Shown here piece after piece: positions 32,681-44,920 of a stretch of 64,000 bases of DNA. The notes under the pieces were generated by a model that was given only the letters and a program-made list of their open reading frames with translations, did not search any database and was not told the DNA's origin. A program made the translations under genes and the position numbers. How positions within the stretch are numbered: position 1 is the stretch's first letter; every line of letters begins with the position of its first letter. The stretch is from Candidatus Desulfopertinax cowenii. Lineage in GTDB: Bacteria; Bacillota; Desulfotomaculia; Desulfotomaculales; Desulforudaceae. The DNA is taken from contig MPOA01000001.1 in NCBI GenBank assembly GCA_001899445.1, positions 148,564 to 212,563 on the forward strand, in the 5' to 3' direction.

Positions 32681-34267
32681 CTAGCTTTTTCTCAAAGATT
32701 TCACGATTTCATCCAGTTCGTCGGCCATCTTGGCCAGATCGTTGGCGTTCGCGGCCATTTCTTGAACCGTACTGCTGACCTCCTCGGCCGAGGCCGCCAG
32801 GTTTTGCACGCCCTGGCTGTGCTGTTCAAACGCCTTGGCGATTTCCTCGGCCAGGTCAGTGCTCCTACCGGCATGTTTACGGATGTTTTCGAGGGCTTCC
32901 CCGGCCTTCTTGATAATCCGGACCCCTTCCTCGACTTCACCGGCCCCGGACTGCATGGATTCCACCGCCTTCACGGTATTTTTCTGGATCGCCAGGACAA
33001 TCTCCTCGATCTCCTTGGTGGCCCCGGAAGACTTCTCGGCCAGCTTGCGCACCTCTTCGGCCACCACCGCGAATCCCCGCCCGTGCTCCCCCGCGCGCGC
33101 CGCCTCAATGGCCGCGTTCAGGGCCAGCAGGTTGGTCTGGTCGGCAATGTCGTTGATCACGCGGATAATCTCGCCGATCTTTTCGGATTGCTGGTGTAGG
33201 TTTTGCACCGACTTGGCGCTCGAATCCACCGTGTGCTGGATGGCGGTGATCTTACTCACCGCCTGCAGCACCGCTTGGTTGCCAGCTTCGGAGGCGTTCT
33301 CGGTCGCCCTGGCCGCCTCCGCCGCCTGGGCGGCGTGGGCCGTAGCCTGCTCCGTGGAAGCGGCCAGTTGGCTGGAGGTGGCGGTCACGTTCTCCACGGC
33401 CGCGCTGACTTCCTCGGCCGCCGCCGAGAGTTCCTGGCTGTGGGAGGCCAGCTGGTAAGAGTTCTCCTGGACCTTGTCCACCAGGTTCTTCAGGTTTTCC
33501 CCCATCTGGTTGAAGGCGGCACCCAGCCGGCCGATCTCATCCCGGGTCCGCACTTCCACCCGGTAATCCAGCTCCCCGGCGGCCATTTTCCCGGCCGCCA
33601 CCTCCAGGCGGTTCAGCGGGTTGACCAGGACGCGGTTGGAAAAGAACATCAGCACCACCTGGGACACCGCCAGCACCAGGGCGGAAACCCCGAGCGTGGT
33701 GGCCCAGCCCCGGGCGATGAGCGCGTCCACAAAACCCTTGGGCACAGCCACGGCCCAGATGCCGACGATTTCGCCGGTGGCGTCCCGGAGGGGCTTGTAG
33801 GCCGTCAGGTATTGCTGGCCAACCACTTCGGCCACCCCGTAGAACTCCTCCCCGCGGTGCAGCACGGTCTGGGCCACTTCGTCGCTAACCCGGGTCCCCA
33901 CGGCGCGCTTGCCTTCCGCCGTGCGCACGTTGGTGGCAATGCGGGTGTCCCAACGGAAAATAGTAACCGTACTCCCCGCCAGTTCGCCGAGGTAGTCCAC
34001 CACTTCGAAGTTGTTGTTCATCAGGACGTCACCCTTGTAAAGCCGGTCTCCTTGCGCCCGCCAGGGCCCCGGGTACATTTGGTCGATGATGGCCTCGCTC
34101 AAGGCCAGGTCGCCCCGGGCCTTCTCGGTCGCCGCCTCTCTGGCAGTGGCCACGACCAGGTTGTTAACTACCAACAACAGGGCCCCCGCAAACAGGACCA
34201 AAATCACCGCAAACAATAAGGCCAGCTTGAACTTAAGCGATATAGATCCAAAGCGTTTAAACTGCAT
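32681..34267 (-). CDS. Methyl-accepting chemotaxis protein with extracytoplasmic Cache-like sensor, HAMP and MA domains
   Basis: Has two TM segments flanking a sensor domain of about 170 aa, and the same conserved signalling hairpin as the other MCP. The start is set at ATG 34267, with GGAGG 8 nt upstream. Confidence 0.9.
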
Positions 34268-39346: not shown

Positions 39347-41338
39347 TTAGGATTCTTCTCCCTCGTACCGCTCCTTCAGTTCCTGGATGACTGCCGGATC
39401 GGCCAGGGTGGTAGTATCGCCCAACGCCCGACCTTCGGCAATGTCCCGCAACAGGCGGCGCATGATCTTGCCGCTTCTCGTCTTGGGCAGTTCCGTGGTG
39501 AAGAACACGTCGTCCGGCCTGGCGATCGCCCCGATTTTCTTAACCACGTGGGCCTTCAGTTCGGACGTGAACTCCGCCCGGGACTTAGAGCCGGCCTCCA
39601 GCTCCTTGAAGTACTTGCCCTTCAGGGTAACAAACACCGAGATAGCCTGACCCTTGATGTCGTGGGACTTGCCAATCGCCGCCGCTTCGGCCACCCACGG
39701 ATGGTCCACCAGCGCGCTCTCGACCTCCATGGTGCTCAACCGGTGGCCGGCCACGTTGATCACATCGTCCACCCGGCCCAGGATCCAGAAGTAGTTATGG
39801 TAGTCCCGGCGGGCGCCGTCCCCGGAGAAGTAAAGGGTCTGGCCGGGAATCTTGCTCCAGTACTCGCGGACGTAACGCTCGTCATCCCCGTAAACGGTCC
39901 GCAGCATGGCCGGCCAGGGCTCCCGGATCACCAGGAAGCCGCCCTTGCCCAGCATCACGGAGTTGCCTTCCTTGTCCACCACGTCAATTTCCACCCCAGG
40001 AATAGGCACCGAAGCCGAACCCGGCTTTTGGGAAATTATTCCGGGCAGGGCGCTGATCATGATCATCCCAGTCTCGGTTTGCCACCAGGTGTCCACAATC
40101 GGACAGCGTTCCTGCCCGATGTGCTTGTAATACCACATCCAGGCCTCCGGGTTGATCGGCTCCCCGACCGTACCCAAAAGCCGCAGATTGGAGAGGTCGC
40201 GCCGGGCGGGCCACTGTTCACCCCACTTCATGAACGCCCGGATCGCCGTGGGCGCCGTGTAGAATACGTTCACCCCATAGCGCTCGCAGATCGCCCAGAA
40301 ACGGTCCTGTTCGGGAAAATCCGGCGCCCCTTCGTAAATTAGAGTGGTCGCCCCGTTAGCCAGCGGCCCGTAAACCACGTAACTGTGCCCCGTGATCCAG
40401 CCGACGTCGGCCGTGCACCAGTACACGTCACTGTCCTTGATGTCGAACACCATGTGGTGGGTGGTAGACACTCCGGTCAGGTAACCCCCGGTGGTATGGA
40501 CTACGCCCTTGGGCCTGCCGGTCGTGCCGCTGGTGTACAAGATGAACAACATATCCTCGCTGTCCATCTCTTCACACGGTCCGCCCACCGTGACGCCAAC
40601 CACCAGGTCGTGGTACCAGTAGTCGCGGCCCTCTTTCATAGGCACTTCCTGGCGGGTGCGCTCCACGACCAGCACTTTCTCCACGGAAGGGCACTGCTCC
40701 AGGGCCAGGTCGGCGTTCCGCTTGAGGGGTACGATCTTGCCGCGCCGCCAGCCGCCGTCGGCGGTGATCAGGAGTTTCGCCCCCGCGTCGTTGATCCGGT
40801 CACGGAGCGCTTCAGCGCTGAAGCCGCCGAATACCACGCTGTGCGGGGCCCCGATCCGGGCGCAGGCCAGCATGGCAATGGCCGCTTCGGCGATCATAGG
40901 CAAGTAGATCGCCACCCGGTCGCCCTTCTGCACGCCTAGCATCCGCAGCACGTTCGCGAATTGGGTAACTTCGCACCAGAGATCCCAGTAAGTGAGAATC
41001 CGGCTGTCTCCGGGTTCACCCTCGAAAATGATTGCCGCCTTGTTCTTGCGCCAGGTGTTCAGGTGCCGGTCAACACAGTTGTAACAGGCGTTCAGCTTTC
41101 CGTTCACGAACCACTTGGCGAACGGCGGATTCCAGTCCAGCACCTGGTCCCATTTCCGGAACCAGTCCAGACGCTCGGCCTGCCGCGCCCAAAAAATCTC
41201 CCGGTTTGCCCGGGCCTCGGCGTAAATGTCCCGGTTTTTCACGTTTGCCTGCTTGGTAAACTCCTCGTCAGGGTGGAAAATTCGGCTTTCCTCCAGTAAG
41301 GTATTTATAGTCTCTTTCTTGACAGCCATGGAAGCCAT
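39347..41338 (-). CDS. acs: Acetyl-CoA synthetase (AMP-forming)
   Basis: Carries the [14 protein letters not shown]-binding motif, the C-terminal [11 protein letters not shown] motif with the regulatory lysine, and the typical Acs N-terminus, over 663 aa. Confidence 0.95.
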
Positions 41339-41651
41339 CCCCCTTTAATGATCTGGTTTGCACAAAAATATAAAGTTACTTTTGGTGAAATTGTAGCGGG
41401 TAAACGGGAACCAAAAAAAGAAAAAGAACGCGAAAAGTCAAATGTTACGGTTCACCGGAGAATAGCGGTGGTCAGCGGCCGCCTCCCGCCCGCCACCGGT
41501 ACATATCCGGGGTGAACGGCTGTTCGCCGGGGTTGAAAGAAATACGGGTCCGGCATCCGACCGGGTAAATCGGCACCAACCGGCAGGAACGGGCCTCCCA
41601 TTGGCGAAATATTTACCGTATGCGGCCGTCAGTAATTGCTTTATTAGTTTT

Positions 41652-41854
41652 TGCTGAAAAAGTCTACTTGCGCGCTGTCTGTTGTGCTGAGGCATTATCT
41701 CCGGCTACTCGAGTCCGCGCTAAGGAATGAACTCGCTCGCCTCGGGCGGCGTTATCGGTCGCCGCTTTTCCTCGGCTTCGCTTGTTCGTTCTTTGAATAA
41801 GCTCCCAATGTGACCTCCGATAATCCTCAGCACAGCAGACTGAGTTTTTCAGCA
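41652..41854. repeat. Long imperfect inverted repeat (arms 41652-41699 and 41819-41854) enclosing about 120 nt; unknown element or structured RNA
   Basis: TGCTGAAAAA...GTCTGTTGTGCTGAGGCATTATC on the left matches GATAATCCTCAGCACAGCAGAC...TTTTTCAGCA on the right. The left arm carries an insertion of about 12 nt. Confidence 0.6.
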
Positions 41855-41862
41855 GACCTCCA

Positions 41863-41880
41863 TGCCGCTCATGAGCGGCA
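41863..41880. repeat. Perfect 18-bp palindrome TGCCGCTCATGAGCGGCA
   Basis: Read directly from the sequence. It lies immediately 3' of the long inverted repeat. Confidence 0.9.
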
Positions 41881-42256
41881 CCACGAAGGATGAAAAGTGA
41901 TCTACTTCCGGGACGTGTTCCCGCCCCGGGTGGTGCCCCCGGCCGCGGCTATTGCGCAGCGCCGGTAACGGCCAGCCGGCGCAAGTGAGGTTGGCGCTGC
42001 CGCCGACGAGGACGCGGCTGGACCGGTCAAAAAGCGCTGGCGGAGATCGATCCGGGAAGGCATCTAGAACCGTGCCTTCCAAAGGGCGACGGCCGCAATC
42101 CGCAGGAGGCGCAGCAGCGCCCCGAACGAGCCGTGCTGCCGTCGGCGCGGAGCACCGGCCGCGCAGGGGACACCACCCGAGGGGGGACATTATCGAGAAA
42201 GTCTATTTTCAGGGCAGAATCTAACCAGTTTACCAGGTAACGGAGTTGAGGAATTA

Positions 42257-43552
42257 ATGATCTGGGACAGAACGGAGACCTTGCCGCGGGAAGATATGGA
42301 GCTTTTACAACTCGAACGACTGAAGGCGGTCGTACGCCGCGTTTACCAAAAGGTTCCCTTCTACCATGAACGCTTTCAGGAGCGGAGGTTGAAGCCGGCG
42401 GACATCCGGAGCCTTTCTGATCTGCAGAAGCTACCGTTCACCGTGAAGGACGACCTGCGGGAGAACTACCCGTACGGGTTCTTCGCGGTGCCGTTGGAGA
42501 AACTGGTGCGGATGCATGCCTCCTCGGGCACCACCGGACGGCCGACGGTGGTCGGCTACACGAAAAAGGACTTGCGCACCTGGTCGGAACTGGTCGCCCG
42601 GGTGGTGGTCCAGGCCGGGGTCAAACCCCGGGACGTGGTCCAGATCTGCTTTAGCTACGGCCTGTTCACTGGTGGCTTCGGTCTGCACTACGGATTGGAG
42701 CGGGTCGGCGCCACGGTGATTCCGGCCTCGGCCGGGAATACTCAGCGGCAGATCAGGCTGATGCAGGACTTCAACACCACGGTGCTGGTCAGCACCCCCA
42801 CCTACGCCCTCTATATCGCCGAGATCGCCCGGGAAATGGGTGTCGACCCCGCCGGGTTGGGTCTGCGGTTGGGCCTTTTCGGTTCCGAACCCTGGTCGGA
42901 AGGCATCCGCCAGGAGCTGGAGGCCGCCTGGGGGTTCAAAGCCACCGACAACTACGGCATGAGTGAATTGATCGGTCCCGGCGTCTCCGGAGAATGCCAC
43001 ATGCAGAACGGATTGCACATCTCGGAGGACCATTTCCTGCCGGAGATTATCGACCCCGAAACCGGGGAACAACTCCCGCCCGGTGAAAGAGGAGAGCTGG
43101 TGATCACCACCCTGACCAAGGAAGGACTGCCGCTCATCCGGTACCGCACCCGGGACGTAACCTCTCTGGATTACACCCCGTGCCCCTGTGGGCGGACCAC
43201 CGTGCGGATGCGGCGGGTCTCGGGACGCACCGACGACATGTTGATCATCCGCGGGGTAAACGTTTTCCCGTCGCAGGTAGAAGAAGTGCTCATGGACATC
43301 GCGGGTGTCGGTCCCCACTACCAGATCATTGTCGACCGGCAGGGATACCTGGATGAGTTTGAGGTACAGGTGGAGCTGGCCGCCGATTACTTTACCGGGA
43401 AGTTCCGGGACCTGGAAACCCTTGAAAAAACCATTCAGGAACGGCTACAGAACGTTCTGCAGATCACCCCGAAGGTAAAACTGGTGGAATACCGGTCCCT
43501 GGAACGAACCACCGGCAAAGCTAAACGCGTAATAGACAAACGAACACTATAG
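42257..43552 (+). CDS. paaK: Phenylacetate-CoA ligase family protein (PaaK-like), copy 1
   Basis: Has the N-terminal LQLERLK..V.RVY..VPFY motif, the SSGTTG.PTVV AMP-binding motif and the C-terminal GKAKRV.DKR. Confidence 0.88.
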
Positions 43553-43597
43553 CTGTTCATAAGCTCGTTCGCGAGACTAAGGAGGATGTGGAACACA

Positions 43598-44920
43598 ATG
43601 TACTGGAACCAGGAAATGGAGTGTATGCCCCCCGAACAGCGGCGGAAACTGCAGTTGGAACGCCTGCAGAAACTGGTCCGGCGGGTTTACGAAAACGTAC
43701 CGCACTACCAGCGGGTGTTCCGGAAGGCCGGCATCCGTCCGGACGACGTCCAGTCCCTGGACGACCTGGCAAACCTGCCGTTCACCACCAAGGACGATCT
43801 GCGCCGGACATACCCGTTCGGTCTGTTCGCCACGCCGCTCAAAAACACGGTTCGGGTGCATGCCTCGTCCGGCACTACCGGCAAGCCCACCGTGGTGGGC
43901 TATACCCGCCAGGACGTAGACACCTGGTCCGAGGTGATGGCCCGGACCCTGAGCTGCGCCGGCGTAAAGCAGGACGACATCATCCAGATCGCCTACGGTT
44001 ACGGTCTGTTCACCGGGGGTCTGGGAGTGCACTACGGCGCCGAAAAAATCGGGTGCACGGTGGTGCCGGTCTCGGTCGGCAACACCAAGCGCCAGATCAT
44101 GCTCATGCAGGACTTCGGCACAACCGTGCTGGCCTGCACCCCGTCCTACGCGCTACATCTGGCCGAGGTACTCGAGGACCTGAACATCGACCGCTCCCGC
44201 ATCCGCCTGCGGGTCGGCGTTTTCGGGGCCGAGCCCTGGACCCGGCAGTTGGGACGTGAAATTGAGAACAAACTGAACATCGTCGCCATCGACATCTTCG
44301 GCCTTAGCGAAATCATCGGTCCGGGAGTCGCCAGCGAGTGTCTCTATAACACCGGTCTACACATCTTTGACGACCACTTCCTCCCCGAGATCATCGATCC
44401 GCAAACCGGAAAACAACTGCCGCCCGGCCAGGAGGGGGAATTGGTGATCACCACCCTGACCAAGGAGGCCTTTCCCCTGATCCGCTACCGCACCCGGGAC
44501 ATTACGGCGCTCCACGAAGAGTCCTGTCCCTGTGGCCGGACCCACGTCCGGATGTCCAAAATCATGGGGCGTACCGACGACATGCTCATCATCCGCGGCG
44601 TCAACGTCTTTCCATCGCAGGTGGAAAGCGTGCTCCTGGAAATCGGACACGCCGAGCCGCACTACCTGCTGGTGGTCGACCGCCGGGGCCCGCTGGACCA
44701 ACTGGAGGTCTGGGTCGAGGTTTCGGAAAAAGTCTTTGCCGACGAAGTGCGGCGCCTGGAGACCCTGGAAAAAACCATCCAACGGGAAATTGAAGGCACC
44801 CTGGGCATCAGCGTTAAGGTCAAGCTGGTGGAACCCAAAACTATCGAACGCAGTCAGGGCAAGGCCAAGCGCGTAATCGACAAGCGGGATCTACATAATT
44901 TACATAATAAAACAAAGTAA
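43598..44920 (+). CDS. paaK: Phenylacetate-CoA ligase family protein (PaaK-like), copy 2
   Basis: Shows the same motifs as copy 1. The start is set at the second ATG (MYWNQEME...), which matches the copy 1 N-terminus. Confidence 0.88.

Follow-up and report, generated by a model that had tools for sequence, protein, structure and literature searches.

A probable nest of three small non-coding mobile elements in the acs–paaK spacer of a Desulforudis-like genome

The segment 41647–42221 of the window (the whole 64 000-nucleotide stretch of DNA that was analysed) is very probably a lineage-specific insertion of three nested non-coding mobile elements. The outermost, A, is a MITE with the ends of an insertion sequence (IS) of the ISNCY family; its right terminal repeat is split by a second element, H, which in turn holds a foldback element, the rod. 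Repeat membership, an empty site in relatives, terminal inverted repeats and target duplications, an autonomous IS with the ends of A and the junctions between the elements were all observed directly. A non-autonomous mobile-element remnant was one of the explanations offered by the original prediction for this region, and it is the one that found support, refined here to a three-layer nest. The abundant secondary structure of the block is the palindromic architecture of these elements, two of whose families are undescribed; our search of the literature for Desulforudis MITEs found none. Nested small mobile elements that encode no protein are ordinary in bacterial genomes.

The insertion lies in the 918 nt spacer (41339–42256) between acs, carried by the minus strand (39347–41338; NF001208, 1028.7 bits), and a PaaK-family ligase gene, paaK, carried by the plus strand (42257–43552). 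The latter is the first of two tandem paralogues (the second at 43586–44920), both of which score below the TIGR02155 cut-off of 646.3 (566.9 and 600.7 bits, respectively). The spacer had been described as devoid of any credible ORF, and this was borne out: its four ORFs, of 55–113 aa, have no Pfam match at E ≤ 0.1. It had also been described as being as GC-rich as the coding sequence, which holds for 41800–42200 (GC content of 0.62–0.70) but not for 41500–41800 (0.50–0.52). Similarly, the structure predicted all along 41440–42256 exceeds that of dinucleotide-shuffled sequences at 41643–41856 (z = −6.09) and at 41857–42224 (z = −6.01), but not at 41440–41642 (z = −0.28, with 68 of 200 shuffles as good). 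The excess is therefore confined to 41647–42221.

Within these limits, several of the proposed folds are real. The long hairpin at 41652–41854 (−88.6 kcal/mol) is matched by none of 200 shuffles, the 18-bp palindrome is present at 41863–41880, and the tight hairpin at 42057–42082 is the apical tip of the rod. The pairing of 41928–41935 with 42171–42178 is the base of a rod-like fold spanning 41857–42224 (−194 kcal/mol), and other copies maintain it through compensatory change (GTGTTTCC/GGAAACAC versus GTGGTGTCCCC/GGGGACACCAC), but the mutually exclusive CACCAC/GTGGTG alternative that had been proposed for it is not kept in those copies. The three-way junction is not kept either: both it and the alternative pairing need an extra segment, at about 41898–41926, that is specific to the window.

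The block is far from unique. Its own 1.78-Mb, six-contig Desulforudis-like assembly (G000), when searched for further copies, gave 27 other matches, which group in modules. Module A (41645–41856) is present in about ten copies, and module B (about 41850–42218), which comprises H and, in its long copies, the rod, was found with nhmmer in seven long copies and in short forms of 70–170 nt. All copies are intergenic, often only a few bases from a gene end, and in the seven co-directional gene contexts B/H is oriented four times sense and three times antisense. A consensus B copy has no match in the plasmid and phage collections that were searched.

The spacer of the closest relatives lacks the block. 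By PaaK protein, these are the MAG UBA3572 (L022; 90% identical) and Desulforudis sp. Kmv41 (L023; 87%), in both of which acs and paaK are divergently oriented neighbours separated by only about 310–360 nt. The synteny comparison showed that window positions 41643–42224 have no counterpart in these two spacers, whereas 41339–41520 and 41558–41614 do align. Two other sites occupied by long B copies (C5:31119 and C6:59470) are also empty in genomes of the same genus (G001 and G002), in alignments where the spacers are too diverged to place the exact insertion point.

On the acs side, the native spacer (41339–41646) is outside the insertion and comprises an AT-rich promoter region next to acs and a block that is conserved in the relatives; it is 77–81% identical to the UBA3572 and Kmv41 spacers. 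The conserved block, in the aligned parts of this region, reads GTGAAAAGTCAAATGT.GCGGTTCA..GG..AATAG... and shows no excess folding; it is probably a control region of acs/paaK with protein-binding sites. A simple promoter scan of 41250–42350 returned no sigma-70-like site. On the other side, a residual native paaK leader can be read from the sequence at 42222–42256 (plus strand), with the ribosome-binding site (RBS) GGAG at 42242–42245 and the ATG at 42257. The RBS-proximal bases (TAACGGAG... up to the start codon) resemble those of the two relatives, with BLAST matches there beginning only at 42254/42258. The insertion ends 35 nt before the start codon and leaves only the RBS region, and we therefore infer that paaK would be transcribed either through about 575 nt of strongly folding DNA or from inside it.

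Element A occupies 41647–41855 on the plus strand. It begins with the left terminal inverted repeat GTTTTTGCTGAAAAAGTC (41647–41664), continues as the long hairpin body described above and ends with the inner part of the right repeat, GAGTTTTTCAGCAG (41842–41855); the last four nucleotides of this repeat, AATC, are found at 42218–42221, displaced by the insertion of B. Intact right repeats of A end in ...TTTTTCAGCAGAATC. The approximately ten further A copies are 77–80% identical to that of the window and align end to end (termini GATTTTGCTGAAAAAGTC ... GACTTTTTCAGCGGAATC); relative to them, the window copy has an internal deletion of about 32 nt. Target duplications of 6 bp flank six of these other copies, five being perfect (TGATTA, TCATTA, TAACTA, TAAATA and TATCTA) and one matching at five of six positions. 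The hexamers flanking the window copy, TTATTA and TAACCA, match at only two of six positions, in a spacer too diverged to place the insertion point.

The termini of A are those of a 1704-bp ISNCY-family IS present in at least two copies in a sister-genus genome (G004): the ends GTTTTTGCTGAAAAAGTC ... GAGTTTTTCAGCAG/AATC match the IS repeat GATTCTGCTGAAAAACTC. This IS is bounded by a 46-bp perfect inverted repeat beginning GATTCTGCTGAAAAAC, is flanked by the duplication TATCTA and encodes a 464-aa DDE transposase (NF033593, 498.7 bits for a cut-off of 325; Pfam DUF772 and DDE_Tnp_1 also match). In our reading, the DDE transposase of such an IS mobilised A in trans, by cut-and-paste with duplication of a 6-bp target. 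No intact ISNCY transposase was found in the own genome, where only fragments are present (C2:276260–276551 and C6:487855–487974), so that the A copies would now be immobile relics.

Two side observations concern these termini. At the right end of the G004 IS (L163 1935–1997, contig C1), the terminal 17 nt or so (GCTTTTTTCAGCAGAATCTATCTAG) are found again internally, in direct orientation, just inside the 46-bp right inverted repeat and about 44 nt upstream of the terminal copy; this second copy may be an extra transposase-binding site or the trace of an earlier end. In the own genome, an opuA-like glycine-betaine ABC operon (ATPase of 417 aa, permease of 282 aa and binding protein of 290 aa) lies between inverted termini of the ISNCY/MITE-A type (C6:743887–747582; L021 1388–5083), with flanking hexamers TAATTA/TGATTG that match at four of six positions and a long B copy about 600 nt to the left. 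It could be a cargo unit that inverted repeats delimit.

The innermost layer, the rod (41892–42210, plus strand), is a foldback that stands in place of the second hairpin of H (GAAAAG...ATTTTC). It is built of a closing stem (approximately 41921–41949 with 42157–42187) and a conserved core (41951–42157) topped by the apical hairpin, together with extra arms specific to the window (approximately 41898–41920 and 42188–42203). In the long B copies generally, the second hairpin of H is such a rod-like foldback of about 290 nt, and across the seven of the own genome 14 of 93 predicted rod pairs show compensatory change.

The rod core, of about 200 nt, is also multi-copy, without H, elsewhere in the order, in other genera and other families. 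In genome G018 the rod is a free 287-nt MITE with the inverted repeat (T/C)AAGYATTCAGTAAACC and 9-bp target duplications, which among nine copies are perfect in four (CAAAACTAG, GTATTCTAG, AAAAATAGG and TATTTGCCG), imperfect in four and not seen in one, the copy boundaries being read by eye from multi-copy alignments. The 14-nt core of this inverted repeat, RYATTCAGYRAAMC, occurs 129 times in G018 compared with 0 in the control. Repeat pairs in this genome are 80–290 nt apart and represent a very extensive MITE superfamily; the rod-bearing form of 287 nt is only one of its members. The rods of G007 and G032 have other termini, with duplications of 8–10 bp still readable. These copies point to a foldback MITE that would transpose alone in other genera, with inverted repeats and 9-bp target duplications; in the lineage of the window it would have taken the place of the second hairpin of H, and H and rod would then have spread as a unit (seven copies). 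No parent IS of the rod was found: among the matches listed for six genomes, there are no repeat pairs 1–3 kb apart.

We may wonder whether the rod core has a function of its own. Over at least six genera of several families it is approximately 65–85% conserved, in multiple copies, whereas the closing stems and termini vary. In a set of 19 copies from seven genomes, 94% of the positions in its 34 pairs are paired and 16 pairs show compensatory change, compared with 8.1 ± 1.7 for shuffled sequences, and the score for covariation is 0.273, compared with 0.120 in shuffles and at most 0.075 when the partners are slid. The internal loops are asymmetric, with motifs that are not mutual inverted repeats (GCAAGTGAGG, CGAGGACGC, GCAATCCGCAGG and CCGAAC.AGCCG) and that are kept under different termini. 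The core at 41951–42157 could accordingly be read as a functional structured RNA or single-stranded-DNA module hitch-hiking on various MITE shells, a reading compatible with arrival by transposition. However, in a foldback MITE a single transposase has to accept both arms, which can therefore co-vary without any RNA, so the covariation alone does not prove one. Moreover, the strands are not distinguished (G·U in 19 cells versus A·C in 13, with similar minimum free energies for both), there is no bias in orientation relative to genes, the block is Rfam-negative and no protein gene consistently adjoins the rods. A metagenome scan with a 19-nt pattern from the core was unspecific, with only one or two true rods among 80 fetched loci. 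The conservation of the core across families exceeds what a transposase-binding end needs, and it may have its own function; we nevertheless regard the functional module as unlikely, although it is the strongest of the alternatives. It is with similarly low probability that the core would be an undescribed structured module (an RNA or single-stranded-DNA fold) with conserved internal loops, kept by selection, for which unrelated MITE shells in several families of this order of Bacillota would serve as vehicles. The reading of the rod as a foldback MITE remains the preferred one.

Between A and the rod stands H, whose own sequence is limited in the window to its two ends. The 5′ module (41856–41897, plus strand) reads ACCTCC, then the hairpin TGCCGCTCATGAGCGGCA (41863–41880), then CCACGAAGGATGAAAAG; the 3′ terminal motif, CTATTTTCAGGGCAG (42203–42217, plus strand), is kept at the right end of all H/B copies. 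The general layout is (Y)AG / AC(C/A)CCC, a GC hairpin (ATGCCGC-loop-GCGGCA) and CCA.CG(G)AAGGATGAAAAT on the left, followed by a variable second hairpin and by ATTTTCAGGG(C/T)AG on the right. The 5′ module occurs in the own genome in seven long and at least ten short copies, and of the 20 motif sites fetched in G007 at least 12 carry the full module, in H copies that are nearly identical. Allowing at most one mismatch, ATTTTCAGRGYAGA is found 13–28 times in G001, G007, G018 and G036 (28 times in G007), compared with 0–2 times in the control.

The 17 copies of the own genome and the 12 of G007, together with the fold, show H to be an element that lacks both terminal inverted repeats and target duplications and carries a hairpin close to either end. 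It is preceded on the left by YAG in 14–15 of the 17 own copies and by AG/TAG in all 12 copies of G007. Its 3′ end is ...GGGYAG, and in the own genome the left flank is often the longer GGGYAG, repeating this 3′ end. In the window, H sits exactly between ...TTTTTCAGCAG and AATC of the right inverted repeat of A, four nucleotides from its tip. The same junction between H and an IS repeat is seen in a copy on contig C2 and, in G001, where a decayed ISNCY IS ends, and it follows from this recurrence that H lands in an IS repeat tip resembling its own 3′ end. H would have inserted at TTTTTCAGCAG^AATC within the right repeat of A, a site that mimics its 3′ end TTTTCAGGGCAG.

Insertion 3′ of a short motif resembling the end of the element itself is how single-strand Y1/HUH transposition works, for example in IS200/IS605 and their non-autonomous derivatives. 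For H, both the enzyme and the mechanism are what we infer from this likeness: H may tentatively be assigned to Y1-type single-strand transposition, a possibility that has appreciable weight without being favoured. The sole candidate enzyme in the own genome would be the product of a single RAYT-like Y1 gene (NF047646, 80.7 bits for a cut-off of 80); G001 and G007 also have one such gene each. None of the Y1 genes at 14 loci scanned in six genomes has H ends. Strand-specific insertion of the IS200/IS605 type would predict an orientation bias, and H shows none with respect to GC skew, with 7 of 17 copies on the G-rich strand (the long copies are distributed 6:1 but are too few to count). It is because the Y1 genes are not flanked by H and H has no GC-skew bias that we keep the mechanism conditional. 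That H would be a new hyper-parasite, of Y1 type or of a kind otherwise unknown, homing to ISNCY repeat tips is a separate proposal, to which we give a rather low probability.

The Y1 gene of the own genome (C6:630145–630906; L102 1204–1965, minus strand) lies directly downstream of a gene pair that, as far as its ORFs can be read, resembles a HepT/MNT toxin–antitoxin pair. Its 3′ flank contains a hairpin, TTAGCACT...AGTGCTAA, unrelated to H. A TnpB/ωRNA element was ruled out, with no match to PF07282 in G000.

H could also have moved through a circular intermediate, by a site-specific recombinase or an IS110-type DEDD transposase rather than by Y1, with AG (CT on the other strand) as the core. 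Its asymmetric ends without inverted repeats and the AG/YAG dinucleotide on both sides would suit such a model, as would the frequent duplication of its 3′ end at the left flank in the own genome, which looks like a recombined circle junction. However, an IS110/bridge-RNA element has no candidate gene here: PF01548 (DEDD) has no match in G000, G001, G007 or G018, even though G007 has its at least 12 near-identical H copies. This absence weighs little, since MAGs can lose multi-copy IS elements; on balance we consider the circular route improbable, and Y1-type transposition is the mechanism that we retain provisionally for H.

The remaining explanations do not involve mobility, and both fare poorly. 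The block lies directly upstream of the paaK RBS and is predicted to fold strongly, as would a riboswitch or structured 5′ leader specific to paaK, or a large ncRNA gene in its own right. Yet it is absent upstream of paaK in the closest relatives, the same sequences recur, in either orientation, between genes at more than 20 unrelated sites and the alternative pairing that a switch would use is not kept. The Rfam search of the window block and of seven other copies, on both strands with E values up to 10 and 1, returned no real match but only noise, the best match of the window block having an E value of 1.9 and 17.6 bits compared with a gathering score of 64.5. The riboswitch-like leader or structured ncRNA of the original prediction is consequently very improbable. 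Even less credible is a decayed protein-coding gene, also part of that prediction: ORFs of 85–113 aa are present, but they are Pfam-negative, the only ORFs common to the copies overlap the repeat itself and the substitutions between copies preserve base pairs rather than the reading frame.

Reading the block as three nested mobile elements removes a false riboswitch/ncRNA candidate, the excess folding energy of the spacer coming from the palindromes of which this mobile DNA is built. It also puts on record three repeat families (an ISNCY-type MITE, H and the rod) in the little-studied Desulforudis lineage, which are useful for genome annotation and for reading differences in presence and absence between strains, and it provides an example of a small element that repeatedly lands in the inverted-repeat tip of another. 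If the rod core proves functional, a minority possibility on present evidence, it would be a new multi-copy structured module. Two further features of the own genome should be noted. The longest exact repeat of the assembly is a 1211-bp sequence present twice at 100% identity (C4:17394–18604 and 32857–34067). On contig C6, at about 700–740 kb, the GC skew switches sign, from about −0.06 to +0.07, marking a replication origin or terminus; around this switch lie two long B copies (704818 and 742935) and a rod fragment (718992).

Among known systems, A and the rod are most like the MITEs of DDE insertion sequences, such as Correia of Neisseria and Nezha of cyanobacteria: both are short intergenic elements without coding capacity, present in multiple copies, bounded by terminal inverted repeats and by target duplications of fixed length (6 bp for A and 9 bp for the rod) and folding as long hairpins, and the termini of A are also those of an autonomous ISNCY-family IS. 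They differ in that A has only the terminal 17–18 nt or so in common with the IS, and in that it is the internal core of the rod, not its termini, that is conserved across genera, with no parent IS found. H, for its part, recalls the PATEs of IS200/IS605 and the REP/REPIN sequences associated with RAYT. Like these, it has neither inverted repeats nor target duplications, each of its ends is accompanied by a hairpin, and it inserts on the 3′ side of a short motif that looks like its own 3′ terminus; REP systems also usually come with a single RAYT-like Y1 gene, as in the own genome. Here, however, the Y1 gene is not flanked by H, H has no replication-strand bias, and its modular design includes a variable second hairpin that is able to hold a 300-nt rod.

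As a whole, the block resembles the BIMEs of E. coli (mosaics of REP and linker sequences) and ERIC, which are likewise nested mosaics of small palindromic repeats, intergenic and often located just past gene ends, with hairpins kept by compensatory changes. The sequences are unrelated and belong to another phylum, and the layers described here can be assigned to separate mobile families. Finally, the behaviour of H parallels that of repeat-targeting IS, namely IS1397/ISKpn1 in BIMEs and IS110-family elements in REPs. Although H differs from these IS in being itself non-autonomous, with a candidate enzyme only, it lands as they do at a fixed position of a repeat, in this case the end of an ISNCY-type repeat.
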